From a virus (taxonomy: Duplodnaviria; Heunggongvirae; Uroviricota; Caudoviricetes), in the IMG/VR virus record IMGVR_UViG_2617270980_000003: DNA of 64,000 bases. One strand, 5' to 3'. Below the pieces are notes generated by a model that saw only the letters and a program-made list of their open reading frames with translations, did no database searches and had not been told where the DNA came from. The position numbers and the translations under genes were made by a program. Below, in pieces: positions 1 to 58,769 of this stretch (positions within the stretch are counted from its first letter, which is position 1; every line of letters starts with the position of its first letter).

Positions 1-164
1 GCTTTCTGCCAGCATAACCACCCCAAAAATCATGGCGGGTCCATTATCTTTCTTCTTTATTCCGGTTGAACGTATATCCAGACTTACCCCTCTGTGCGTG
101 CTGCCATCAGAGTTTTTGCAGATAACATCTTCCTTGTATTCGAAAATAATGCGTACGACTTTAC

Positions 165-446
165 TCATCCTCTGGTCCTCGTTCTGTTTGGATAACTGAC
201 CCGGCGTCTAACCTCACGGCAGAACCGAATCATGGCATTAAAGGCTTCTTCCTCCGTCACCGCTTCCGGTATCCCCGGAACCAGTAACTGCTCCTGTTCA
301 TCACGTCCATGACGCGCCATAACCTCAATCACATGCCGTACCGTGGCAGGCTTTCCGGCAACTATCGGCAATGCACCTTCCGGCAGGACGTAACCAAACT
401 CAATAAGACCACTCGACCACGCCCATGCAATGAGATTTTTTTTCAC
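165..446 (-). CDS. hypothetical protein, Mu-like early region
   Basis: 93-aa ORF downstream of the B-like gene on the same strand; no family recognised. Confidence 0.4.
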   Translation of the reverse strand: MKKNLIAWAWSSGLIEFGYVLPEGALPIVAGKPATVRHVIEVMARHGRDEQEQLLVPGIPEAVTEEEAFNAMIRFCREVRRRVSYPNRTRTRG

Positions 447-447
447 C

Positions 448-714
448 TCACACCTCCCAGTAAACCGTGCAGCCGCTGATGCGGGTGGCCTTCACACGGC
501 GGCGCAGGCCGTTGGTCTGTATGGTGATTTCAATTTCACCGGTTCCCTGCACGTTGCCTACCGGCGGCGTGGTTTTCAGTGCAAAACGTTGCGGATAGCG
601 CTTACTGCGTTCCAGTACCGCACCGGCAAGTTCGGTCAGACGGCGCGCGCTGTTCAGGGAGTCGAATAAATTCATTTTGTTACCGCAGGATTGCATATTC
701 ATATAACACCTCAT
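448..714 (-). CDS. hypothetical protein, Mu-like early region (start may be internal)
   Basis: 88-aa ORF tightly packed with neighbours on the same strand; no family recognised. Confidence 0.35.
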   Translation of the reverse strand: MRCYMNMQSCGNKMNLFDSLNSARRLTELAGAVLERSKRYPQRFALKTTPPVGNVQGTGEIEITIQTNGLRRRVKATRISGCTVYWEV

Positions 715-942
715 TTAGCTGACTTGTTTCGCACCAACAGAACGGCATATTCCGCTGTAAACTTCTGTCGCACCTTCGCGATCAAGTCCGGCAGATATCA
801 CCATTCGTGTGCGGTCATTAAATTCAAAAAGTAAATCGCCACATTCTTTATTTTCGGCCAGTGAAATCACCTTCACGTTATCGAAATTAACCAGGTAAAA
901 GCGTCCGTAAATATCAGGAATATTAAATACCGCCATAATCAC
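715..942 (-). CDS. hypothetical protein, Mu-like early region
   Basis: 75-aa ORF immediately downstream of B with 4-nt overlap, operon-like packing. Confidence 0.4.
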   Translation of the reverse strand: MIMAVFNIPDIYGRFYLVNFDNVKVISLAENKECGDLLFEFNDRTRMVISAGLDREGATEVYSGICRSVGAKQVS

Positions 943-1880
943 ACCTGTGAGAGTAATTCAGGGTTGGTATAAACCTCTTTAAAGGCCGCATTAATATGTT
1001 TTTCTGTCAGCGCCGCGCCTTCACCGCTGGCGGTGAGCCACGCCTGGTTAAGCGTATGTGTCAGAACGCGTAACGCTCCCGGCTTTTCAGCGATAGCCTG
1101 CATGACGGCCAGCTCGGCCTCACCACTGATCCCCCACGCCATGGCAATGGCCAGCACATCCGCCTTTTTGGCCTTGCGAAGTTGTTTTGTACGGGCAAGA
1201 CGGCTGAACAGGCGCGATAAATCACCAAAGGCGCGGCGTCCACCTTTAAACAATCCGCGCGGGTTACCAATAAGCACCATCCCGATCCCCGTGGCGTCCT
1301 GAATTGCCCGGAGTTGCTCCAGACCGTCAATACCAAGATGATCCGCCTCATCCACAATCACCAGTCCACGCGTTCCCATCAGGCGACGGCGGATGGCGCG
1401 GGATAATGCCCCTTTGTTCGCGCGGGTGTAATCAATCCCCAGCGCATCGGCCAGCTCCAGCAGACACTCCGTGACGCTGGAGTGCGCGGGTGACAGGGTG
1501 ATCATCCAGGTGTTTGGTTGCTCCTGGCAGTAATTACGGGCAGTGGCCGTTTTACCCACACCCGGTACGCCCACAATAACGTTAATACAGCCCATCAGGC
1601 GAACCGCCTGAAACAGTGCGCGCAGCTCCTGGACTGTCTGAGTTTCCACAAACTGCGGCGGTTCCGGCAGTGCGCTTTGTTTATTCCAGTTCTCATACCA
1701 GGAGCGCAGGGAAGCAGCCACAGCAGCGTTATCGCCTTTATATTTTCCCTTACGGAAAGCCGATAATGTGCCGTCGGAAATTCCCGCCTCTCTGGCGATG
1801 GCATACTGCGTCAGTACGCCGCCATCAATAAGTTCATCAATGGTCTTGATTACATCGTTAATATCGGTCATATTATTCAC
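939..1880 (-). CDS. Mu B-like transposition/target-DNA activator ATPase (AAA+)
   Basis: 313 aa; Walker A GVPGVGKT and Walker B VIVDEADHL; collinear similarity to phage Mu B as recalled (PEPPxFVETQTV, KPGALR motifs). Confidence 0.9.
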   Translation of the reverse strand: MNNMTDINDVIKTIDELIDGGVLTQYAIAREAGISDGTLSAFRKGKYKGDNAAVAASLRSWYENWNKQSALPEPPQFVETQTVQELRALFQAVRLMGCINVIVGVPGVGKTATARNYCQEQPNTWMITLSPAHSSVTECLLELADALGIDYTRANKGALSRAIRRRLMGTRGLVIVDEADHLGIDGLEQLRAIQDATGIGMVLIGNPRGLFKGGRRAFGDLSRLFSRLARTKQLRKAKKADVLAIAMAWGISGEAELAVMQAIAEKPGALRVLTHTLNQAWLTASGEGAALTEKHINAAFKEVYTNPELLSQV

Positions 1881-1953
1881 CTCGCTTGAGACAGCATTCT
1901 CCGAGACTGAAACCTCAAATAACCTGAGTCACCCCTCGGGTTATTTTTTTATT

Positions 1954-4041
1954 TCAGGCCAGCGGATCACTTTCTTTTAATTTCGCTTCGAGCAGTTGCA
2001 ATCCCCGCTGGAAATTACGCTCGTATTCTTCATCAGGTTCATCGTCAGCGACCGGTTGCTGAACGGTCACCGTATTACCCACAGGGCGGTATATGTTTTC
2101 CAGCCAGGGCTCCTGCGGCTTGTGCTCCAGCACGTTGACAACCTCATCCTCGGCATCACGGATTTTTTCCTCTGCGCGTTTACGCATGCCTTTAAGGCGC
2201 TGCTGCTGTTTGTAGTATTCCGCGCTGACAGGGAAGGCTTCGCGTTTATTGCCGTCCCATACCGCCTCGCAAATCACGCTGCCATCCGGGCGGCGCACGG
2301 TAATTCGTTCGGCATCATGAATGTCATAGCTGATAAGTACCTTACGGCCATGCTCGTCACGCAGCTCGGGCGCGTAGTAAATATTATTCAGCCAGCGTAT
2401 TTCACAGCGTCTTACAGGGCGCTCCACCATCGGCCGGAACATATCCCGCAGTTCAACATCGGACAGCCATTCAATTTCCGTGTCCTCTTCCGCCAGGCGT
2501 TTTTTTCTGAACTCCGCCGGGCTGTAATGTTTACCGTTCGGCTTCATGGGTAATTCATCGTGCGGCCGGTTGTTGTACCACTCAACACCGTCACGAATGG
2601 CATCAATCAGTTCAGACCAGGACGGTAAATCACGCATCGCTGACTGCTGCCGGGCGTTCAGCCGTTTGCCCTGTTGCAGGGCACTGAATGCCGAGCGTAA
2701 ATCGCGGTTGGTTTTACGTAACGTCTCGCGATCTGCTCCTTTCCCGAAATAGGTGCGGTATTTACGGGCTATGCGCATCGGTAATGTGCGGTTAAGCCGT
2801 TCGATAATGCCCCGTCCCTGCGGATTACCGGCAATCCCTGTCGGGTGATTAATCCCCAGTCGTGGCAGTATCCCCACAATCTCCTTATCCAGGACGTCGG
2901 CGGTTTCCCCGGAGCCATTATCCGAGTAATACAGAAACGGTTTGCCATGATGGCGAATACCGTGCTGTATGGCACCGGCTACGGCGAAAACATTTTCAGC
3001 CAGGTCAAGGCTCCAGCCCACCACAAAGCGCGTGCCACCGTCGATAACAAAGGTCACTTCCGGTGCGAATGGCCGCCCGTGAACCGGGTGCGCGCATTTC
3101 AGCTTCATGCCGTGACCGTCACCAATCCAGACATAATTCACCGGCATTTTTGACCAGTCGCGGCGCGTGAATCCCTCAAGCTGGCGGTATTCACTGCCGG
3201 TAACCCGTCCTTTTTGTTTCACCACTTCCGGCAGTTTCTTCATTGCGCGGCGAATGGTGTCATAAGACGGCATGATATCGAGCATATAAGGCTCATCAGC
3301 GTGCCGGTGCTGCCATTCGGCAACAAAATCCTCGTAAGCCTCGGTCATTGGTCGGCCGTTTGACTGGCGATACTGCGCCAGAAATTCGGGCAACCAGTTA
3401 ATATCTTCGGCTTTTATTTCCTGGCGTTTACCTGGTGCCAGCAAAAGCAGGCGTTCAGCAGCGTTCTGTGCCTTATTAAAGGCCGCAATCCAGCGTTTCA
3501 GCGTGATTTCACTCAACACGCGACTGTTTCCCTTTCTGGCGTTCGCTATCTCAACCATTGCCACAATGCGCTCATCCAGTTGCGAGTGTGACAGGCGGTC
3601 AACGATGAACCGGATAGCTTTAGCGCAGCTGAAACCGGGTTGTTGCGTGAATTTCAGCACCTCACTGACGATCGCAATGCGTGCGTCTGCCACCTGGCGC
3701 TGGTTTTCAGTCAGGGCATTGAGGCGTTCGACCATCAGTTGTGGTGATCCGCGATATGCCTCCACCGCATCAACCACGGCAGACGAGCGTCTGGCCTTTG
3801 TCACCACCGGAGCCGGTGATTCATCGGCTTTTTGCGTCATCAGTTGCAGGGCATAACGTTCGCGTAATGCCTGCTGTGTCACTTCAGGTAAACAGTCAAT
3901 GCTGTATTCAAAACCTTTAGCGCCTTTCTTGCGGCGTCTGCTGGTTTCGCTGGTTGCATACTTCCTGATTGAATAGCGAACGCCTTGCTCCGTTCCCGGC
4001 ATCCCCGGTAATCCAACCAGTTCTTTGACTGAAGCAAACAT
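1954..4041 (-). CDS. Mu A-like DDE transposase
   Basis: 695 aa, directly upstream of the B-like gene and downstream of ner; Mu-transposase-like core region; position as in Mu. Confidence 0.88.
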   Translation of the reverse strand: MFASVKELVGLPGMPGTEQGVRYSIRKYATSETSRRRKKGAKGFEYSIDCLPEVTQQALRERYALQLMTQKADESPAPVVTKARRSSAVVDAVEAYRGSPQLMVERLNALTENQRQVADARIAIVSEVLKFTQQPGFSCAKAIRFIVDRLSHSQLDERIVAMVEIANARKGNSRVLSEITLKRWIAAFNKAQNAAERLLLLAPGKRQEIKAEDINWLPEFLAQYRQSNGRPMTEAYEDFVAEWQHRHADEPYMLDIMPSYDTIRRAMKKLPEVVKQKGRVTGSEYRQLEGFTRRDWSKMPVNYVWIGDGHGMKLKCAHPVHGRPFAPEVTFVIDGGTRFVVGWSLDLAENVFAVAGAIQHGIRHHGKPFLYYSDNGSGETADVLDKEIVGILPRLGINHPTGIAGNPQGRGIIERLNRTLPMRIARKYRTYFGKGADRETLRKTNRDLRSAFSALQQGKRLNARQQSAMRDLPSWSELIDAIRDGVEWYNNRPHDELPMKPNGKHYSPAEFRKKRLAEEDTEIEWLSDVELRDMFRPMVERPVRRCEIRWLNNIYYAPELRDEHGRKVLISYDIHDAERITVRRPDGSVICEAVWDGNKREAFPVSAEYYKQQQRLKGMRKRAEEKIRDAEDEVVNVLEHKPQEPWLENIYRPVGNTVTVQQPVADDEPDEEYERNFQRGLQLLEAKLKESDPLA

Positions 4042-4043
4042 AA

Positions 4044-4274
4044 TTACGCGACCTTACGAATGTAGCGGCTGGGCCAAATCTCCTCGGGCGGCACCCCCAG
4101 GCATTCCGCGATAATCCCCTCATACTTGGGAACATGGCGGTATACCGCGTTGTACAGATTGTTCTGACCCACGCCAGCTTTACGGGCCAGCGCCCTCATG
4201 CTTCCTTCTCTGGCTCTGACTTCCCCCAAAATTCTTTGAGGATGCCAATCAGGCTTAACTTCATTTCTCGCCAT
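4044..4274 (-). CDS. ner: Ner-like DNA-binding regulator (Ner/Nlp family)
   Basis: 76 aa; DWHPxxI...EEIWPSRY pattern matches Mu Ner / E. coli Nlp as recalled; divergent from repressor gene. Confidence 0.85.
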   Translation of the reverse strand: MARNEVKPDWHPQRILGEVRAREGSMRALARKAGVGQNNLYNAVYRHVPKYEGIIAECLGVPPEEIWPSRYIRKVA

Positions 4275-4458
4275 GATTCATCTATCCTAAAAAGTTACGA
4301 AATTTGATAACTAAACTTAGTTATCAAGTTTGATATAAGTATTGATCCACCTCTGCTTCATGTAAAGCAAAAAAACATCTTTCTTTTGTCTATTGTGGAT
4401 CAATGGTTGCTGACAACACTAAAAGTTAATAATTTCAAATTGATAGGAAGAAAAGAAA
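4275..4458. promoter_or_regulatory. divergent early promoter/operator region between ner and repressor; near-perfect 24-bp palindrome TTGATAACTAAACTTAGTTATCAA at 4304-4327 plus further TTGATA half-sites
   Basis: Palindrome and TTGATA repeats read directly; location between divergently transcribed regulator genes. Confidence 0.5.
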
Positions 4459-5004
4459 ATGAACAAGCAAACAACAACATCTCTTTCTTTTCCTGGTGGT
4501 AGAAAAGAAAGCATTGCTGAGCGTCTGAAAAGGCTGATTGGCTCCCGCAGCGTCAGAGCTGCAGCAAGAGATTGGGGGCTTTCATTTTCAACACTAAACA
4601 ATTATCTGTCTCGTGGCACTGAGCCATCCTTAAGTGTCGCCCTTCAGATTGCGTCTATCGAAGGAGTAAGTGTTGAGTGGCTATGTGGATTCAGTGATGC
4701 ATCACAAGTGAATCGGTGTGAGATCAAGGAAAATCAAGATGAAAGCAAGAAGATAATTATGACGATTATCAGCGCACTTGATGAAAAAGACTTAGAGCAG
4801 CTATCGAAAAATTTGGTTCTGAATGGAGCCAAGTACTTAGCTCGGTTGTTAGAGCCTGAAAATCAAGATCTAATCCGCTTAGAAGGAAGGAAAAGAATAG
4901 CTGCATTACAGCTTGAAGGTATGTCTGACGAACGCGTCAGAGAGATTTTGGAAGAAACTGAGAGAAGTCGCAAATCTAACGCGGTAGAACCAAAAGCGGG
5001 TTAA
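4459..5004 (+). CDS. prophage repressor (HTH; not similar to Mu c itself)
   Basis: 181 aa at the Mu c position, transcribed toward the prophage end; N-terminal HTH-like segment (WGLSFSTLNNYLSRG). Confidence 0.65.
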   Translation: MNKQTTTSLSFPGGRKESIAERLKRLIGSRSVRAAARDWGLSFSTLNNYLSRGTEPSLSVALQIASIEGVSVEWLCGFSDASQVNRCEIKENQDESKKIIMTIISALDEKDLEQLSKNLVLNGAKYLARLLEPENQDLIRLEGRKRIAALQLEGMSDERVREILEETERSRKSNAVEPKAG

Positions 5005-5069
5005 TAGCATTAGCCCGCATTTTGCACTATATCGAGTATTTCGCATTGTTTGGAACGCCTTAAAAGACT

Positions 5070-5249
5070 AAAACCACAGTATCAAATGAGTTGCCGATTT
5101 TATAATAAATGACTAATTATTGCACAATCGGTATCAAATAGACCTTATCCGCACATCTAGCCATCACCTGTTTTATTTCAGTATCTTACAGGTGATTTCA
5201 CCTCCTTTCACTAAAACCCTTGTCGGTATCAAATGATTCACCTGGTTAT
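5070..5249. repeat. Mu-like prophage left terminal region with three copies of a GTATCAAAT(G/A) motif (candidate transposase-binding sites)
   Basis: Motif copies near 5077-5087, 5131-5141 and 5227-5237, between the repressor stop and the J junction. Confidence 0.45.
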
Positions 5250-6977
5250 AATACTCACGCAGCGGAACAGGCGCTGGCGCAGCGTCGGCAGCTTCAGCCC
5301 CCACACGCTGTATCCGGCAACGCCGTCAGGAACACGGCTAACTTTCACCTTCACGCCGTCGGTGACGGACTGAACCTCCACGCTGACCGGATTGCCACTT
5401 CCGTCAACCAGGCTTATCAGCCTGGTGCCGGAGGATGGCAGCGTGATTTCACGGTCGAGCGTCAGCGTCCGGGTCTGGCTGTTTACCGCCAGCACGCGCC
5501 CGCCGATGCTGATACCGGCATAGTCATCATCACAGATTTCAATGACATCACCCGGCACATGGCGAAGCCCTTCTGCGCCCACGCTGAAGTCCACGGTCTG
5601 CGTTTCCAGCAGTTCTGTTTTAATCAGCCACAGCCCGGCGCGGTGTGCCTGCCCCCGGCTGGTACAGCCAAAAGCATCCATCTTCGTGACGTTACGACCG
5701 TAACGGGCAATGGCCTGCGTATCCTCCACAAGCTCTGTTGCCGTCTCCCAGCCGTTGTTCGGGTCAATCCAGTTCACCTCAACGGCATTATGGCGGTCTT
5801 TCAGGGCGCTAAAGCTGTAGCGGAACGGCGCGCCATCATCCGGCATCACCACATTACTGCGGTTATAGGTCCACACCTTATCCGACGGTCGGTCCTGCAC
5901 GAACGTCAGCGTCTGCCCGTTCCATACCGGCATACAGCGCATCGCCGAGCAGAAATCACTGAGCACATCCCACGCCTTGCGCTGTGTGGTCAGGTACGCA
6001 TTACAGGTGATGCGCGGCTCCGTACCGCCAAAACCGTCCGGCACTGACTGGTCGCAGTACTGGCCGATGACATACAGCGCCCATTTATCCACATCCGCCA
6101 CACCAAGACGTTTCCCCATGCCGTAGCGTGGATGGGTCAGCATATCCCACAGACACCAGGCCATGTTATTGCTGTATGCTGGCTTAAACGTTCCGTCCCA
6201 GATACCGCTGTATTGCCGCGTCTGCGGGTTATAGTTCGACGGCACCTGCAGAATACGCCCGCGCAGATGATAATTACGGCTCACCTGCTGGCTGCCGAAC
6301 TGCTCCGAATCCACCTGCACGCCGACCAGTGCCGTGTTCGGGTAGCACTGTTTCACATCGATGATTTCGGTGTATGACGACCAGAGCGTTTTGTTCTGCA
6401 GCTGGTCTGTGGTGCTGTCCGGTGTCATCCTGCGCATCCGGATATTGAACGGGCGCGGCGGCAGGTTATCCACCACCACCGAGGCCAGATACTGCGACGT
6501 GGTTTTGCCCTTAATGGTGATGTCTTTTTCTGTCACCCAGCCACCGTTACGTTGTATCTGAACCAGCAGGCGGACTTCCGACGGATTCCGGTCACCCTTT
6601 GAGGTGGTTTCCACCAGTGCCTGCACACCGAAGGTAAAGCGCAGACGGTCGATGTTTGCAGACGTGATGGTCCGGGTGATCGGCGTGTCGTATTTCACTT
6701 CCGTACCCAGCACCGTCTCGGAACCGGAGGATTCAAATCCCTCCGGCGGTGTCTGCTCCTGCTCACCTGCCCGGAACACCACCGTGACACCGGAGATGTT
6801 GGTATTCCCCTCACTGTCCAGCACCGGTGTACTGTTCAGCAGCACGCTTTTTAATCCATCCACCGGACCTTCAACCGGCCCTTCGCTGATGGCATCGATC
6901 ACACTCAGTAACTGCGTGGATTTCAGGTTATCCTTCGCTTCGCGCGGGGTATGCCCCTTACTGCTGCCTTTACCCAT
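5250..6977 (-). pseudogene. J: lambda J-like tail tip/host specificity protein, 3'-truncated by the Mu-like insertion
   Basis: N-terminal ~576 aa near-identical to lambda J as recalled (MGKGSSKGHTPREAKDNLKSTQLL... LFRCVSI); similarity ends and a stop follows within 3 codons at the Mu-like end. Confidence 0.9.
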
Positions 6978-17580: not shown

Positions 17581-19089
17581 TTATTCTTCGGGCTGGTCGT
17601 CGGTGTGCTGCGGCTCCTGTCGTTTCGTTGCGGCACTACTGCCTCCTTTATCACTGGCCGGATCGGTATCAAATACCAGATCCAGCTTGCGGTTTTCATC
17701 AATTTCGGCCTTGCGCCGACGTTTGACATCATCCGGATTACGACCACCAGCACGTACCCAGTCTGATTCTGTCGCCGCTCCACCACGAATCTGGATTTTC
17801 CAGGCCTCAGCCTCCTTAACAGGGTCAATCCACGGCATCACTGGTCCGGAATACACCGCGGTATACAGTGAAGAACGGTCAAGATCGCGGGGTAGCCTGA
17901 TAACACCGGATGCCACAGCCTGTTTCAGCCATGCACGATACATCGGGCGGGTGACGGCACCAATAAACCAGTCCTGCAGGATCAGGTAGCCATCAGTGGA
18001 TTCAACCAGCTCCTGACGCTGGGCGCTGTAAGTGCCGTTATAGTTGCGCGCTGTACTGGAAAAACTCAGACGACTGCCCGCCGCCACGGCACGCAACTGA
18101 CCATTACGAAAAGTTTCAAGGTTAGGATTGGGGCGATCCGACTTCACCATTCCGATTTCTTCGCCGGGTTTCAGATCGTCGTAAATAATGCCCGGCTGAA
18201 TGGTAAGCTCACGTTCATTCTCCTTTCTGCCATTACCATCCGGTTCATAGCTCTGCCCGTCGCCTTTCCGGATGTACATCCCCAGAGCAGCGGCGATCCT
18301 TGCTGCAGTCAGCTCAGAATCTTCATATTCTTTCAGGGCACTGAGGCGGATCAGCACACCGGACAACAAAGACGTCCCGCGCATCTGGTGCAGACGGCGA
18401 ACAAATTTAAGATGCAGCATTCGCTCTGCATCCACTTCTTTGGTTTCCATCTGCCGTCCGGATACGGGACGGCTTTTATACACCAGATATTTTTCGGGAC
18501 GCCCCCAGTCATCAACAAACACGCCCTGATTCAGCCTGTTGCTCTCATCACTGGTCATGGGAATAAAGTCCGGCTCGAGCGCCTCCAGCCAGAAATGAAC
18601 ACCGGCAGAAGGCGCCAGGCTGTTTATGCGCCCGGAAACCATCTGGGCAAACACCTCACCATCGCGCAGCCAGGTACGAAGCATCAGACGTTCCAGCATC
18701 GGACGGGTAAACTGCCCGGTGACTTCCGGGCTGACAGACCATTCACTCCATCGGGTGCGAATCTCCGCAGCCAGGTCACGGGCAATGGCCCCATTGCGTA
18801 ATACCGGATGTGGCTCGACAATAATCCCGTTTTTCCCCACCACCCGTTCTTCCAGCTTATCAAATACACCAATAACCAGATCGTGGTTGTTATCAAGGTA
18901 ACGGGCCTGCTCACGTAACGACACGGCCCCGTACTGGCTTAACTGGTCGGCAGTTCGGTTCTCCCGTCGGGCTTTGTGTGTCCGCGTCGTTTTTACGGCC
19001 TCATAAGCCTGGATCACCGCACGGGAACGCAGCCTTGCCGCTTTCCATCCTGGTGAAAAAACGCCAATCACATCATCAAGAATTGCCAT
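17581..19089 (-). CDS. portal protein (lambda B-like)
   Basis: About 500 aa between gpW-like gene and protease-capsid gene; start MAILDD overlaps W stop. Confidence 0.8.
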   Translation of the reverse strand: MAILDDVIGVFSPGWKAARLRSRAVIQAYEAVKTTRTHKARRENRTADQLSQYGAVSLREQARYLDNNHDLVIGVFDKLEERVVGKNGIIVEPHPVLRNGAIARDLAAEIRTRWSEWSVSPEVTGQFTRPMLERLMLRTWLRDGEVFAQMVSGRINSLAPSAGVHFWLEALEPDFIPMTSDESNRLNQGVFVDDWGRPEKYLVYKSRPVSGRQMETKEVDAERMLHLKFVRRLHQMRGTSLLSGVLIRLSALKEYEDSELTAARIAAALGMYIRKGDGQSYEPDGNGRKENERELTIQPGIIYDDLKPGEEIGMVKSDRPNPNLETFRNGQLRAVAAGSRLSFSSTARNYNGTYSAQRQELVESTDGYLILQDWFIGAVTRPMYRAWLKQAVASGVIRLPRDLDRSSLYTAVYSGPVMPWIDPVKEAEAWKIQIRGGAATESDWVRAGGRNPDDVKRRRKAEIDENRKLDLVFDTDPASDKGGSSAATKRQEPQHTDDQPEE

Positions 19090-45663: not shown

Positions 45664-47013
45664 ATGCGATTGACCGCTCCTGTTAAAGCGTTCTCAGATG
45701 GTTTTAGTACAGCAGATGACATATTTGGACGTAAAAAACTTCATGACATCATCATGCGGGTAGCAACAAATGCCCCAGATAAAAGTCTTGTACTTGCGCT
45801 CAATGATGAATGGGGTAACGGAAAAACCTCATTTGTAAAAATGATGTCATCAGAAATAAATAAAAACCATGCTGACAACTTTGACGTTATTTACTTTGAC
45901 GCTTTTGAAAATGACTATCAATCAGACCCATTTGTAGCCTTAACATCAAAAATTTATTCACTCATAAAAAAAGAAGATGGAAAGCTTAAAAACCTCGGGA
46001 AAGAGTTATTATCCATTGGTAAAAAACTAGGCGCGTCATTCGCACTTAATGGTGCAAAATTTGCCGTAAGCACTTTCACAAGTGGATTAGTCTCAGGTAA
46101 CGCACTGGAGAAAGCAAGTGATGCCATCAGTGACTCTCTCACATCACCTATTGAAGAGTACATTGAAGAAAAAATAAAAACGAGCGAGAGTGAGTTAGCA
46201 ACAATTGAGCAATTTAGAGCATTGCTGACCAAGATTCACACTGAGTGTGGGAAAAAAATAATATTTATAATTGATGAGCTAGACAGGTCGCGACCTGATT
46301 TTTCCCTTGACTTGCTAGAGAAAATAAAACATATATTTTCAGTGGAAGGTTTTGTTTTCTTACTAGTAGTTAACCGTGAGCAGTTTGAAAAAAGTATAGA
46401 GTGTAGATATGGGAGCATAAATACAAGATTATATTTAAATAAATTTATTCATTATTGGTTTACTCTTCCTAAAAAAAGTATGCTCTCAGTAGGCTGCCGA
46501 GCAGGCTATGAACGTTCAACGTTAACACAATATCTCCTGTCGTTAGATCAAGGGAATGACATACTGATTCGGAATGGTTCTCTCGTAAAAACCCTCGCGT
46601 ATCTTCTAGAAATGAATAACTGTTCACTGCGAGAGGCTGAGCGTTGCTATTCAACATTCGCAATAATGAACGACCCCAGCGAAGTAAATTCCTACCGACA
46701 TGAAATATTTCATGTTGCCATCGCACTAGTTGCTTTCTTGAAAATATTCAACCAATCCTTACTCATGGAAATATTAAACAAAAAACTGACAGAAGATGAG
46801 ATATTTAAACGATTATCAATTCCTGTAAACCTTGTCGATGTTTCTGAGATTTATTATATTGCAATATTGTTAAAATACCACTTAGCCACCGATGAAGAAC
46901 TACGTTCCTCTGATATGCTCACTGAGTACGCATTCATGGCTGTAATACCTGGACAACGAGTCAAATGGTTTGAAATGATGTATGAGAAGATCGAAGGCTT
47001 TGATATTAACTGA
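45664..47013 (+). CDS. KAP-family P-loop NTPase (soluble; no TM insert evident), cargo in P2 old/tin hotspot
   Basis: Walker A LNDEWGNGKTSF and Walker B IIFIIDELDR; AT-rich; own SD (GAGGAAAAG); lies between cos/Q and gene A on the opposite strand to A. Confidence 0.8.
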   Translation: MRLTAPVKAFSDGFSTADDIFGRKKLHDIIMRVATNAPDKSLVLALNDEWGNGKTSFVKMMSSEINKNHADNFDVIYFDAFENDYQSDPFVALTSKIYSLIKKEDGKLKNLGKELLSIGKKLGASFALNGAKFAVSTFTSGLVSGNALEKASDAISDSLTSPIEEYIEEKIKTSESELATIEQFRALLTKIHTECGKKIIFIIDELDRSRPDFSLDLLEKIKHIFSVEGFVFLLVVNREQFEKSIECRYGSINTRLYLNKFIHYWFTLPKKSMLSVGCRAGYERSTLTQYLLSLDQGNDILIRNGSLVKTLAYLLEMNNCSLREAERCYSTFAIMNDPSEVNSYRHEIFHVAIALVAFLKIFNQSLLMEILNKKLTEDEIFKRLSIPVNLVDVSEIYYIAILLKYHLATDEELRSSDMLTEYAFMAVIPGQRVKWFEMMYEKIEGFDIN

Positions 47014-47292
47014 TAAGCCATATTATCTTTTATCTCTATTTTGAAGCAATAAAACTAGAAGTAAACTCTAAAAAGCCGCCAATCCCGGCGGTCTTTGAAG
47101 GGCATTACAATTTCGTGGCGCTCAGTTATACATGGATTCTTAGCAAGGACCAAGCCGCGACACACTACATTGTAGCTCCCCGCTATGTGATTTGAAGTTG
47201 CTGGCAATCAAAAAATGCTCCCTTTAGTACCACTAATTTTGTAGAGTATGGTTAACTTTGAAAAGTTGTAATACGTCAACTAAGGAACAGCG

Positions 47293-48444
47293 ATGTCATC
47301 AGAAAAAACAATAGAACGTTTCGTTGCAGCAGATGTTAGCGGTGCAATCTGGTTACGATTAAAACGATTAATGAGTGCGCAGCTCTGTAAGAAAATAATA
47401 GAAAATAATCATCCGTCATTGCAAGAGGATGTATTGATTAAAAAATCCATTGGAATGTCCTCCGCAATACGAAGTGCAATCGGATATTGGGAGACTGAAA
47501 ATGGCGGACTCAATTCAAAAATTTTATCCAGATATTATGCATTATTACAGATAAGCTTAGCTGAACAAATATCATCAGGGGATCCTAACGACGATTTAAA
47601 AAATGTTCAAAAGCATACGGTTTCAGGTCATGGGCTATTCACACAATCTGTTGAAAATGAAACATTCCCAGACAATATAAAAATAGGCTGTCTTAAAAGT
47701 GGACATTTTTATTCATATGCAAAGCATATAGGAATTGATATCAAACAGTATGCAACAGAAAGACGTCCAAAAAAAGATGAAGATTTAGACCCATCACGCA
47801 CCTATTCTTTAACTGATTTATTAAAACGAATTCCAGAATTAAGACCGCTTTTACAAGAAACTTTCGGTGAAGATCCACTTTCATTCCAAATTGGACAAGC
47901 AAGTAGAAACATGCTCTTAAGATCAAGGAATCAGTCACTCGGTGGCCTATCGCGTCCTAAACCAGAGTTCTCAGGTTTTACATATGCCGCAATTTATCCC
48001 AAAGGTAGCGATGTAACAGCAGAAGAGCTTAATTCTTACAACATTGGAATAAAAAACATTGAAATTGAGTCAGAAGAAAACCTCACAAAATATGACCAAC
48101 CATATTTTGTAGGAGAAGTCCATCACCCTGAAGATGAGCTATGGTGGGATTATGTCACGACACACAAATCTGGTTATTGTGGAACGAGTGTAATTGTCCC
48201 ATTTTGGGGAACTCAAGATCCCTTTGTATTACACTTAGTCGTATTATATACATTAAGCATTATAGTCAGGTATCTCCCTGACACTTGGTATGAGATTGAG
48301 CATGGCAAACTTGATTATATTAATTCCCTTTTGGAAAATTATTTAGCTATTTTTGATAGTGTACTGCCTAAACTTGCGGTTGAAAGATTAACGAAAGTTC
48401 ATTTGGTAGTAACAGCACCCGATAGCATGAATTCCCCTATCTAA
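47293..48444 (+). CDS. hypothetical protein, 383 aa, no recognised domain; hotspot cargo
   Basis: Long AT-rich ORF with SD (AAGGAACAG), preceded by its own AT-rich intergenic region and a hairpin after the KAP gene. Confidence 0.6.
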   Translation: MSSEKTIERFVAADVSGAIWLRLKRLMSAQLCKKIIENNHPSLQEDVLIKKSIGMSSAIRSAIGYWETENGGLNSKILSRYYALLQISLAEQISSGDPNDDLKNVQKHTVSGHGLFTQSVENETFPDNIKIGCLKSGHFYSYAKHIGIDIKQYATERRPKKDEDLDPSRTYSLTDLLKRIPELRPLLQETFGEDPLSFQIGQASRNMLLRSRNQSLGGLSRPKPEFSGFTYAAIYPKGSDVTAEELNSYNIGIKNIEIESEENLTKYDQPYFVGEVHHPEDELWWDYVTTHKSGYCGTSVIVPFWGTQDPFVLHLVVLYTLSIIVRYLPDTWYEIEHGKLDYINSLLENYLAIFDSVLPKLAVERLTKVHLVVTAPDSMNSPI

Positions 48445-51546: not shown

Positions 51547-52011
51547 TCAGAATGGCGCTCCATCATCAAAATCGAACGGGGGAGGCGTCGTCTTCCATGT
51601 CACCGGTTTACCTGGTTTACATTTCCGCGCGGCCTTGACTGTTGGATAGTTGAGGGAATGCCGGACAACTTCATCAGTCCACAAATCGTGCGCCTCGAAA
51701 TCAACGCGCCAGCAACCTTTGCTAATGCAGCGGCGTGAAAAAACGCGCGTAACAACGGCGCAAACCGTATGACTTTCAGGCTCGGCTTCAGCGGCAGGAT
51801 CAAAGCCAAGAAAAACAAGCTCACTACTGTGAGACTTAATCAGGGGATCAAGAACCGCCCCGAAAGACTTACGAAGCGTCTTTTCAACATCAGGGCCAGC
51901 CAAAAGACCTGCATAACCAGCGTGAATTAATGCAGCCTCTTTTGCCTTTTCTAACGCCGCTATCGCGCCTTGCAGATAGCTCACGTGATCGTTAATGGAC
52001 GGAGTAATCAT
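51547..52011 (-). CDS. hypothetical protein between dam and A
   Basis: About 154 aa from MITPSIN, start overlapping dam stop; not recognised as P2 B. Confidence 0.4.
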   Translation of the reverse strand: MITPSINDHVSYLQGAIAALEKAKEAALIHAGYAGLLAGPDVEKTLRKSFGAVLDPLIKSHSSELVFLGFDPAAEAEPESHTVCAVVTRVFSRRCISKGCWRVDFEAHDLWTDEVVRHSLNYPTVKAARKCKPGKPVTWKTTPPPFDFDDGAPF

Positions 52012-53003
52012 CAGAAGTCCTCTGCTGCTGTGTATGAATCGCAGATCTCGCAGTTGCGACAGCAAAAGGTATCGCTTCCAGATTCATAGCCATCGCCAGC
52101 AACGGCAGGGCAACAGGTAGCGCAATAACCACGCCCTACTTGCCCGCACTCGTCACAGACGAGCAGCGAACCAATCACCTCACCCGCGAGATTGCGTGTT
52201 TTTGCTCCCACAGAACGCCGGACTTCGAATGAGTTAAGGGTGAACGGGTAGTAAATTTGGCGCGTTTCCGGGGTGTCACTGCCGGAAATAACAGAGGGTA
52301 TTTTTGCCTGGTTGTAGAGGCGTGAAAGCATCGCAACCAGGGCGCGATGGTCTTCATCAGTAAAGGGCTTACCGTATGCAGTAAAATTTGCAGTCTCGCT
52401 GGCTGGCAGGTATGGAGGATCGCAATAAACCACGCAGCCTGAATGCCCGATAGATAGAGGAATTGTTTCTCTGAAATCACCATGCAGGAACATTGCCCCT
52501 TTGTCCCAAGCCCTTTTTGCAAAATGCTGAATCTCAGCCACAGGGAAAATTGGCTTCTTACGAAAACCAAAAGGAACGTTGAATTCATTCTTTAAATTAA
52601 CACGGTAAACACCGTTGTAGCAGTGACGATTCAAATAAAGAAATAGCGCTGCATATTTAACTAATTCATCATTTGTATATTGCTCTCTATGCCCTGCGTA
52701 CTCGCGATTAAAAATATTGAAGTCATCACGATTTATGTAATATGCATCTTCATTATTACCAGTCAAAAACAAGGCGGATGCATAAGTTAAAAGCGCTTCT
52801 GTGTTGCGCTTAACCATAGAGAAGAAATTAATTAGGGCTGCATTGCTATCACACAGAATATAGGTTTTATAGTCTGTATTCAGAAAGACGCTACCACTAC
52901 CCACAAAAGGCTCAACGAGGCATTCACCCTGCGGCAGAGCATCCAGTACATGAGGCATCGCGCGAGACTTGCCGCCAGCCCAGATCAGAGGGGAGTTAAT
53001 CAC
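52011..53003 (-). CDS. dam: DNA adenine methyltransferase (Dam-like, D12 class) with Cys-rich C-terminal extension
   Basis: PLIWAGGK near N-terminus, FVGSGSVF (AdoMet), DPPY catalytic motif; GTG start at 53001-53003 with AAGGAG 7 nt upstream; C-terminal ~50 aa contains about 10 Cys. Confidence 0.8.
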   Translation of the reverse strand: MINSPLIWAGGKSRAMPHVLDALPQGECLVEPFVGSGSVFLNTDYKTYILCDSNAALINFFSMVKRNTEALLTYASALFLTGNNEDAYYINRDDFNIFNREYAGHREQYTNDELVKYAALFLYLNRHCYNGVYRVNLKNEFNVPFGFRKKPIFPVAEIQHFAKRAWDKGAMFLHGDFRETIPLSIGHSGCVVYCDPPYLPASETANFTAYGKPFTDEDHRALVAMLSRLYNQAKIPSVISGSDTPETRQIYYPFTLNSFEVRRSVGAKTRNLAGEVIGSLLVCDECGQVGRGYCATCCPAVAGDGYESGSDTFCCRNCEICDSYTAAEDF

Positions 53004-53163
53004 TTTTTTGCTCCTTGATTTCTGCGGCCTGTTCTCTGTTGTCGATCCAGTTTTCCAGGCTGCGATAAATTTCATTGGTGGACAGTTTTTCTTTTTTCAG
53101 CAAGGTTAATTTGATACGTAACAATCCAAGCAGGTGCGCGCGTTCATTTGTTTGAATTGTCAT
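53001..53163 (-). CDS. small hypothetical protein (about 54 aa) translationally coupled to dam
   Basis: ATG at 53161-53163, stop overlapping the dam GTG start (GTGATTAA); not in ORF track because below its size cut-off. Confidence 0.3.
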
Positions 53164-54564: not shown

Positions 54565-55578
54565 ATGACAATTAAGAAACTCGATGATGGTCGTTATGAA
54601 GTGGACATTAGACCTAGCGGACGCAACGGAAAACGCATCCGCAGGAAGTTTGACAAGAAAAGTGAGGCAGTGGCCTTTGAGAAGCACACGCAATACAACC
54701 ACCACAACAAGGATTGGTTAGCGAAGCCGACCGATAAAAGGCAACTTTCCGAATTGATTCAAATCTGGTGGGAACTCAAGGCAAAGCACGAGGAATGGGG
54801 AAAGTACAATCGGGGAAAGGTCGAGAAATTCGCGGCGATAACCGGTGATCCGTGCGCGTTTCAGATTACAAAGACGGTAATTAGCCAGTATGTTGCAGCT
54901 CGGCGAGGTGAAGGCGTTAAGCCATCTACCATCAATCGGGATCTGACATGCATCAGCGGAATGTTTACCGCTCTGATTGAGGCCGAGCTATACCATGGCG
55001 AACACCCGATAAGAGGACGTAAACGACTCAAAGAGGAGAAGCCCGAAACGGGCTATTTAACCAACGAGGAAATTACCGCCCTTTTCTCGCGGCTCGATGG
55101 TGACAATAAAAAAATAGCGGTTCTTTGCCTAAGCACGGGCGCTAGGTGGGGTGAAGCGGCAAAACTGAAAGCCGAGCACATCATCCATAATCGGGTGACG
55201 TTTGTTAAAACCAAAACGAACAAACCCCGAACGGTGCCAGTATCGGCAGAAGTATGTGAAATACTCACCAGCGTGAAGCGCGGCTTCCTGTTCCCGAATG
55301 CCGATTACACGTTGTTCCGGCAGGTACTGAAAGAGGTAAAGCCCGACCTGCCAGCAGGACAGGCAACCCATGCTCTACGGCACAGTTTTGCTACGCATTT
55401 CATGATTAACGGAGGAAGCATTATCACGCTACAAAGGATACTCGGTCACGCGCGCATAGAGCAGACAATGGTCTACGCGCACTTCGCGCCAGAGTATTTA
55501 CAAGATGCCGTAACACTCAATCCGTTAAAGGGCGGCATTGAACCCGAAAACGTCCACACAGTGTCCACACTCGGGTGA
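54565..55578 (+). CDS. int: tyrosine integrase (P2 Int-like)
   Basis: 337 aa; near-identical over long stretches to P2 Int as recalled (MTIKKLDDGRYEVDIRPSGRNGKRIRRKFDKKSEAVAFEK...HALRHSFATHFMINGGSIITLQRILGH.RIEQTMVYAHFAPEYLQDA). Confidence 0.95.
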   Translation: MTIKKLDDGRYEVDIRPSGRNGKRIRRKFDKKSEAVAFEKHTQYNHHNKDWLAKPTDKRQLSELIQIWWELKAKHEEWGKYNRGKVEKFAAITGDPCAFQITKTVISQYVAARRGEGVKPSTINRDLTCISGMFTALIEAELYHGEHPIRGRKRLKEEKPETGYLTNEEITALFSRLDGDNKKIAVLCLSTGARWGEAAKLKAEHIIHNRVTFVKTKTNKPRTVPVSAEVCEILTSVKRGFLFPNADYTLFRQVLKEVKPDLPAGQATHALRHSFATHFMINGGSIITLQRILGHARIEQTMVYAHFAPEYLQDAVTLNPLKGGIEPENVHTVSTLG

Positions 55579-57486: not shown

Positions 57487-57807
57487 GGATATTTATCAGG
57501 ATTTATCGGCTTCAAATCCCCGGATATGTTAAATCTTACCTCACCAGTGATGGGCACTGGCGGGAGGGGGGTGTCAATCTGATAAACACAAAGGCGACTA
57601 TGGATTACACAAAACTACCTAAACAAACTTTTGCTGATTTAATCGCACTCAGGCAAGCAGTCGTAGCTCTAATCAACTTGTTGCCGGAGAAGGAAAAGGA
57701 ATTAGTTAAAGCGCTTCTTAACAGAACTGCCGCCGATTTTTCATCATATCCACTGACAGATGACCTTGCGGACCTTCCTGAATTAATTGCAGCGTCCGCC
57801 AATAAGC

Positions 57808-58359
57808 TTACTGAAGAGATTTACCCTCCTCAAAAATCTTCACAAAATTCCTGCGAGTAACTTCAATGCAATAATCGTAAAACGCCGCAAACTGCTCATC
57901 GCGGCGTTTTTTTTCATCTTCAGAAGGAATCAGCACCGACAATTTTTTATTCAGATCAGCGACGCTGCCCTCCAGTTTTTCAATGGGCGATTCAATATCA
58001 TCTTTTTCTGACCGCAATGCCGTCGGTGGCGTCTTCAGAGAACCAGTAATTCTTCCCGGTAGCTTTCCTTTGTAGGTTATCCACACATTCTGCGCCTCTA
58101 AAATTATGGGGCGCTTTTCCGGCGACTGCTCATCCCCTTCACATAACCCGGCAGCAACATCCAGGAAGACCTGTCTGATGCTCCTTCTGGCTGCTGCCTC
58201 ATAAAACTCCAGCGCGGCACCTTCAACACGGTCCAGCGAGATGTCCAGGTCAAAAATTTCACCGTCAAAGTGTTTTTTGTCCCGTAAGGCTACAGTTACC
58301 GCCACTTTATTCTCAAAATTGCGAACTCCTTTCACAACCAGTTCATAGTCTTGAGTCAT
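57808..58359 (-). CDS. hypothetical protein between holin and endolysin (YdfR/DUF1327-like position)
   Basis: ORF MTQDYELVVKGVRNFENKV... at the ydfR position of Qin-like lysis cassettes. Confidence 0.45.
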   Translation of the reverse strand: MTQDYELVVKGVRNFENKVAVTVALRDKKHFDGEIFDLDISLDRVEGAALEFYEAAARRSIRQVFLDVAAGLCEGDEQSPEKRPIILEAQNVWITYKGKLPGRITGSLKTPPTALRSEKDDIESPIEKLEGSVADLNKKLSVLIPSEDEKKRRDEQFAAFYDYCIEVTRRNFVKIFEEGKSLQ

Positions 58360-58363
58360 TGGA

Positions 58364-58579
58364 TTACTCTCTTCTCGCAACCTTACGCCTGTCTTCTTTA
58401 ATCTTGAAATAAAGGTTTGTCAGATACGTCAGCATGCCAAATACCAGACTACCCAATACACCTATTGCCGCCCACTGTGAGGGCGTGACTTTATCGAGCA
58501 ACTGTAAAAACCAGTAGCCAGCACTGCCTGCAGAGGTGCTGTAGGCGATGCCCGTTGTTAACTTATCCATGGATTTCAT
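58364..58579 (-). CDS. pinholin (phage 21 S-like, dual-start MKSM)
   Basis: [45 protein letters not shown]... matches S21 pinholin as recalled; paired with SAR endolysin. Confidence 0.85.
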
Positions 58580-58769
58580 AGCCTCACCTCCGCAGATAAC
58601 GGATGGTGTACACGGTTTGGTTCGAAGAAGGAAAGAAGTTACATTAGCGTAAGGCCCGAACATCTATTCAAAAAGAAAAACGCCAGCAATTATTCTGGCG
58701 TAGCTAAAAATATCGTATAATCTTACACTTCAAAAAATAACTTTATAAAATGCCATCACATCATATCTT

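Follow-up and report, generated by a model that had tools for sequence, protein, structure and literature searches.

Left end of an Sp18-type Mu-like prophage in gene J of a Qin-type lambdoid prophage of Escherichia coli

The Mu-like left end and the truncated gene J

The stretch of DNA analysed here (the window; 64,000 nucleotides, IMG/VR record IMGVR_UViG_2617270980_000003) represents nearly all of contig JNMX01000022.1 from assembly GCA_000700685.1, a 2014 short-read draft of Escherichia coli 3-475-03_S4_C2. The following features lie in and around the junction between its two leftmost components, a Mu-like prophage end and a lambdoid gene J:

1..5250, minus strand: left (early) 5.25 kb of an Sp18-type Mu-like prophage, which runs on leftwards past the window
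939..1880, minus strand: MuB-type AAA+ target-DNA activator (AAA_22 and Phage-MuB_C domains; 48% identical to MuB)
1954..4041, minus strand: DDE transposase (A), 695 aa, with HTH_Tnp_Mu_1 and Mu-transpos_C domains (PF02316, PF09299)
4044..4274, minus strand: Ner-type early regulator (HTH_35, E 1e-21; 45% identical to Mu Ner)
4275..4458, no strand: divergent regulatory region between the repressor and ner, with presumed operators and early promoter, from the layout of Mu
4459-5004, plus strand: candidate repressor of the XRE/HTH_3 type, transcribed towards the element end
5079..5087, plus strand: candidate transposase-site core L3, with its TTGATAC core 166-172 bp from the terminus
5131..5139, plus strand: candidate transposase-site core L2, TTGATAC core 114-120 bp from the terminus
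5163..5196, no strand: perfect 9-bp inverted repeat (pair I2), ATCACCTGT and ACAGGTGAT, 16 nt apart, in the L1-L2 spacer
5226..5234, plus strand: candidate transposase-site core L1 (GTATCAAAT), TTGATAC core 19-25 bp from the terminus
5238..6977, minus strand: truncated J open reading frame, 579 aa, i.e., J residues 1-576 followed by ITR and a stop; the J-derived DNA is 5251-6977
5247..5250, plus strand: left terminus of the Mu-like element, reading outward ...CCTGGTTATA and inward 5'-TATAACCAGG
5251..5254, plus strand: one copy of the 4-bp target duplication, ATAC (GTAT in the orientation of J)

The truncated J frame, annotated in 3-475-03_S4_C2 as KDU56818.1, shares 566 of 576 residues with the corresponding part of lambda J (residues 1-576) in an ungapped alignment. 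Its last three codons (ITR) and the stop come from the Mu-like end, whereas an intact E. coli J (1165 aa, locus L001) reads on ...CVSIRENDDG after residue 576. On the plus strand, ATACTCACG is preceded by ...CTCACGG in intact J and by ...CCTGGTTATA in the window. We compared the segment 4400-6200 of the window with 5,426 complete E. coli genomes by megablast. J homology was found in more than 4,500 genomes and always started at query base 852, which is window position 5251; the matches of Mu-like relatives ended at 5248-5250, and none of the 5,426 genomes spanned the junction 5250/5251. The preliminary description, which had J matching lambda for about 576 residues and diverging within three codons at about 5250, was right to the base. 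Instead of a full-length lambda-type J with its receptor-binding C-terminal part, we found residues 1-576 of about 1132-1165. Thus, J is split after residue 576 and its C-terminal, receptor-binding half is lost; the lambdoid prophage is therefore unable to make infectious tails alone.

All early genes in the window are full length. The transposase is 23% identical to MuA across its full length; its N-terminus (residues 2-62) matches the I-alpha domain of MuA (PDB 1TNS), and residues 362-424 match the catalytic cores of retroviral integrases. In the BLAST alignment, D308 and D374 coincide with MuA motifs that we take to be D269 and D336, and E414 is a likely catalytic residue, given the G-x-G-I-I-E-R motif and the integrase-core match. 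The MuB-type protein lies directly downstream of this MuA-type DDE transposase and Ner lies upstream, as in the Mu-like class. The candidate repressor occupies the position of c in Mu; its HTH_3 match is weak and falls below the threshold (E 2e-4, 21.8 bits; cut-off 23), and it has no significant similarity to Mu c. A sigma-70-like site is found upstream of ner on the minus strand (4366-4338). The Mu-type early region (repressor, ner, A, B) that had been described earlier is thus present, by domain matches and Mu homologues, and the statement that neither its transposase nor its repressor is that of Mu itself stands as well.

A complete copy of the element, L006, is a 38.4-kb prophage within bcsA of E. 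coli S1-CAM-01-A, which it interrupts; its left end (469-5718) matches window 1-5250 with 99.0% identity over 5,251 bp. The left-end region of the window element shares 93-94% identity with the "inserted Bacteriophage Mu-like phage" of LC727881 and LC727895. The annotation of L006 includes Mu transposase, AAA ATPase, Gam, Mor, lysis, portal, head, contractile tail, Com and Mom; late genes of this type lie outside the window, past the end of the contig in 3-475-03_S4_C2. It should be noted that RefSeq also places a "tRNA-OTHER" in L006, at 18544-18623, which is flanked by the genes for head morphogenesis and virion morphogenesis and is encoded on the strand opposite to them.

The terminal bases of the element, TATAACCAGG, border unrelated host genes in S1-CAM-01-A, 23CRST047 and HH35; the left terminus is TGTAACCAGG instead in the Sp18-type and Stx-phage copies. 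The repeated motifs previously noticed just beyond the break in J include three copies of GTATCAAAT (repeat family D1), at 5079, 5131 and 5226, all in one orientation. Six copies of this sequence are present in the window against 0.54 expected, and none of 100 shuffles reached six. The right end of complete copies has inverted cores at 19-25, 41-47 and 76-82 bp from the terminus, so that several repeats in inverted orientation are found at both ends, the right-end triplets being read in complete copies and in a remnant in strain 600029 (see below). The terminal core is at the identical distance (19-25 bp) on the left and on the right. On the left, a terminal site is separated by a spacer of about 90 bp from two further sites; on the right, the three sites are clustered. 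This layout mirrors the L1-L2-L3 and R1-R2-R3 arrangement of Mu, and the GTATCAAAT cores are the probable binding sites of the transposase.

The same Qin-type lambdoid prophage contains another insertion, a P2-like prophage of ~32 kb (window ~23634-55658), between the lysis/cspI-ynfQ region and ynfN/terminase. It has genes for tail sheath, gpD, capsid, terminase, portal and gpA, and an integrase gene at 54565-55578. Its boundaries were set solely by comparison with the uninterrupted prophage: in E. coli ETEC6335, its flanks are contiguous. No perfect att core repeat of at least 8 bp was found at its ends. Cargo genes lie between the portal and gpA genes (45664-48444 and 52011-53075). One of them encodes a KAP-family P-loop NTPase with a match to PDC-S20, a candidate defence family of PADLOC (E 1e-74); the gene after it encodes a YaaC-like protein and, further along, there is a Dam-type (D12 class) adenine methyltransferase. 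The P2-like and Mu-like insertions together mean that the lambdoid late operon is interrupted twice.

The reciprocal junction and the present state of the element

About 2.6 kb to the left of window base 1, the contig stops inside an IS1; therefore, the right junction is unreadable in the draft of 3-475-03_S4_C2. This IS1 disrupts a SANT/Myb-like early gene of the Mu-like prophage, some 7.6 kb in from the left end of the prophage. The 304 bp of this IS1 (bases 1-304 of JNMX01000022.1, equivalent to L007 19318-19621, ~2.3 kb left of window base 1) have an unusual end (GGTAGTGACTCC...).

The right junction was read in the chromosome-level assembly of E. coli 600029. Here, the right end of a Mu-like element (...CGCCGCGCTATA/GTATCCGTGAGAACGACGAC...), with three inverted copies of the same site core, is followed by the 3' portion of J and then by lom and the side tail fibre genes. 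The last bases of the element, ...GCGCTATA, are joined to GTATCCGTGAGAAC, which is J from the very base where the J of the window stops. In the orientation of J, intact J reads GTGAGTATCCGTGAG, the window reads GTGAGTAT and then TATAACC, and 600029 reads GCGCTATA and then GTATCCGTGAG. The J of the window ends with ...GTGAGTAT and that of 600029 restarts with GTATCCG; thus, the two junctions are reciprocal, with GTAT duplicated. The expectation that the other end would resume J after a target duplication, and that matching terminal repeats would be found there, is borne out in this strain, at the same base of J.

This remnant is the only such right junction among the 5,426 complete genomes. The exact open reading frame that spans the junction also occurs in two NCBI draft contigs of 6.9 and 10.6 kb, one of them from strain 1-392-07_S3_C1. 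Exact-pattern scans of the GTDB representative genomes and the JGI metagenomes did not contain the junction. A search with the leader peptide gave no match at E<=1e-25, a cut-off that was too strict for the shorter variant of the reading frame, and the proteins matched by the J 3' fragment were all either longer J fragments or deletion fusions. In two database proteins (P0003 and P0004), the N-terminus of the tape-measure protein or of terminase gpA is fused in-frame to the C-terminal part of J; hence, large internal deletions of lambdoid late regions that end within J recur in E. coli prophages.

In 600029, only the last 4.6 kb of the Mu-like element precede J, and they are themselves preceded by an IS1, joined directly at Mu coordinate ~33.8 kb. 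Over the 304 bp, this IS1 and the one that closes our contig are 100% identical, and their orientation relative to Mu is the same. Beyond it lies a lambdoid lysis region that is 99.8% identical to window 57710-58735. What remains at this locus (L008, NZ_CM128582.1 300969-313415) is limited to holin, a truncated ydfR, the IS1, these 4.6 kb of Mu, the 3' portion of J, lom and stf. Because the junctions are shared, the structure in 600029 looks like the same composite prophage, with Mu in J, after IS1-linked deletions. Strain 600029 also has a full Mu-like copy in sgrR and, elsewhere, an intact J that is 100% identical to the J of the window over 950 bp.

These observations bear on what 3-475-03_S4_C2 carries at present. 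The element might be a dead remnant in this strain, consisting of the left 7.6 kb up to IS1, perhaps with the last 4.6 kb, the middle having been removed by an IS1-mediated deletion; we consider this a real possibility, if less likely than not. The contig ends in IS1 at Mu coordinate ~7.6 kb, 600029 has the same type of IS1 at ~33.8 kb followed by the right end and the 3' portion of J, and the two draft contigs with the right junction are of the size expected of remnants bounded by IS1. Conversely, drafts break at any repeated insertion sequence, and a simple IS1 insertion in a complete Mu looks identical; moreover, the short contigs are not tied to 3-475-03_S4_C2, one of them belonging to another strain, and the early genes in the window have kept their full length. 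It should be noted that this alternative concerns the present state of the element and is compatible with an original insertion into J.

Two further alternatives concern the origin of the junction itself. The Mu end could have been joined to J by recombination or deletion rather than by transposition, and IS1-mediated rearrangements have indeed occurred at the J locus in the related strain. Such events are not expected to have an endpoint that coincides with the exact terminus of the element, nor would they leave a 4-bp duplication on the opposite side at the same base of J; this origin is very improbable. Even less credible is an assembly chimera, i.e., Mu-like reads from elsewhere in the genome wrongly joined to J. 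In its favour, the genome was drafted from short reads, and E. coli genomes contain repeated copies of J as well as of Mu-like sequences. Against it, the join is at the exact terminal base of Mu, where J and Mu share no homology that could mislead an assembler; the reciprocal right junction has been assembled independently at chromosome level and recurs in two draft contigs; and the contig is recorded in three samples.

We therefore return to insertion by transposition, and consider it very likely that the window contains the left junction of a real transposition event, in which an Sp18-type Mu-like phage entered codon 576 of J in a Qin-type lambdoid prophage of E. coli 3-475-03_S4_C2. The earlier claim of a Mu-like transposition into lambdoid J, with inactivation of J, agrees with a junction at the exact terminus and a J that is cut after residue 576. 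The breakpoint, the terminal bases, the site layout, the gene content, the copies at other loci and the right junction in another strain are read directly from sequence.

Copies at other loci, 4-bp duplications and TA termini

Left ends that are 99.5-99.9% identical occur in nine complete E. coli genomes, with different annotated flanks (three of these junctions were read), and related copies occur in about 230 genomes. We examined the end copies L002-L006, L010-L013, L016 and L017. For seven independent insertions, both junctions, or reciprocal junctions, could be read, and the target duplication was 4 bp in 7/7:

bcsA: GACG
elyC: TAGA
diguanylate cyclase gene: TACG
dcuC, Sp18-type copy of O157:H7: TAAT
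two Stx phages: GATG and AGAG (4 bp also in the annotation of the depositors)
J (this work): GTAT

One element is thus found at many unrelated sites with short duplications. A duplication of 5 bp had been expected in the preliminary description, and this part of it has to be replaced by 4 bp, both at J and in the seven insertions as a set. A 5-bp duplication fits J and LC727881 only if one terminus is shifted, and it fails at bcsA, elyC, the diguanylate cyclase gene, dcuC and LC727895; consequently, 4 bp is preferred.

The right terminus is 5'-TATAGCGCGG, always TATAGCG, in every copy that was read; the left one varies by subgroup, being either TATAACC or TGTAACC. TG/CA is found neither at the right end of any copy read nor at the left end of the subgroup of the window. 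The elements at bcsA, elyC and the diguanylate cyclase gene have the terminus TATAACCAGG, each with its 4-bp duplication. We also considered that a C-to-T change at the left terminus had immobilised the copy in the window, and rejected this, as other copies with a TATA left end are found at different loci (three junctions read). Because such copies occupy different loci, the TATA left terminus is evidently functional.

A terminal TG/CA dinucleotide is considered close to universal among Mu, retroviral and many DDE elements. We tentatively suggest that the Sp18-type lineage consistently makes 4-bp duplications and is active with 5'-TA/TA-3' termini, which may reflect a mechanistic variant of the Mu transpososome, one that has another stagger and is less strict about the terminal bases. 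A description of 4-bp duplications or TA termini in Sp18-type phages was not found in the literature, and these properties so far appear only as feature annotation in GenBank.

The TA termini and the 4-bp duplication point to a mechanism that is Mu-like, not identical to that of Mu. The Sp18-type phage is a myovirus, with DDE transposition as its route of integration. If it works as Mu does, its A transposase is expected to bind three TTTGATAC-core sites at each end and to pair the ends, and A, together with the MuB-like ATPase, would then join the 3' ends to target DNA. With a stagger of 4 bp, repair would leave GTAT duplicated on both sides of the element.

For annotation, the Mu-like insertion explains the truncated J, and the lambdoid prophage can be marked as defective. 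The locus is a nest of mobile elements, in which the chromosome holds a Qin-type lambdoid prophage, the latter holds the Mu-like prophage (and also the P2-like one), and the Mu-like prophage holds IS1; the remnant in 600029 illustrates how such nests may decay through IS1-linked deletions. The insertion into J is otherwise as expected of a phage that inserts almost anywhere, and RefSeq genomes already include the Sp18-type phage. Mild novelty is limited to the combination of a 4-bp duplication with TA termini in the Sp18-type lineage; the consistency of both in a widespread Mu-like lineage of E. coli could merit a biochemical look.

Comparison with known systems

Lambda J (the tail tip or host specificity protein, 1132 aa) is 98% identical over residues 1-576, and the upstream tail genes are in the lambda order; past residue 576 nothing of J remains here, and three Mu-encoded codons and a stop are found instead.

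The element shares with Mu (Muvirus mu, AF083977) the order of a repressor followed by divergent ner-A-B-kil-gam, the succession of L1, spacer, L2 and L3 at the left end and clustered R1-R3 sites at the right end, Com/Mom at the right end of complete copies, the I-alpha-type N-terminal domain of A, the related B and Ner proteins, and near-random insertion with a short duplication. It differs in the transposase, in the repressor, which is unrelated and of the XRE type here, and in the site consensus. Furthermore, Mu has TG/CA termini and 5-bp duplications, whereas the termini here are TA (TATAACC... and ...GCGCTATA) and the duplications are of 4 bp. Close identity to the A protein and c repressor of Mu proper was not found.

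By transposase, the closest isolated phages are SuMu of Haemophilus (42.7% protein identity) and the Yersinia phages vB_YpM_5 and vB_YpM_6 (~81% DNA identity over 1.5 kb of gene A); they have other hosts and are otherwise divergent.

The element in the window is an Sp18-type Mu-like phage of E. coli, and insertion of a phage into a phage has already been described. Members of this type include Sp18 of O157:H7 Sakai, Phi804-3, and Mu_JNE082796 and Mu_JNE122137, which are inserted in Stx phages (LC727881 and LC727895); the latter two records gave the best matches to the window in the phage database. Sp18 of O157:H7 Sakai is reported to be predicted intact and to be efficiently packaged (PMC2669165), and related copies are found at strain-specific sites (PMC7430833). 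In CC119 STEC, six of ten Sp18-like Mu phages lie inside mobile elements, including Stx phages (PMC10132054). The suggestion of a distinct Mu-like phage is accordingly to be divided: the element is not Mu itself, its A being only 23% identical to MuA, but it is not an unrecognised phage either, as it belongs to the Sp18 type (PMC10132054). Like Sp18-type phages, which have variable insertion sites that include lambdoid prophages (PMC10132054, PMC7430833), it has the same gene order, a transposase 93.5% identical to that of Mu_JNE082796, right-end DNA that is 96-100% identical, the same site cores and 4-bp duplications. It differs in the immunity and left-end region, which is only about 80% identical, in the left terminus (TATAACC in the window element and TGTAACC in the Sp18-type phages), and in the target, which is gene J of a Qin-type prophage and not an Stx phage.
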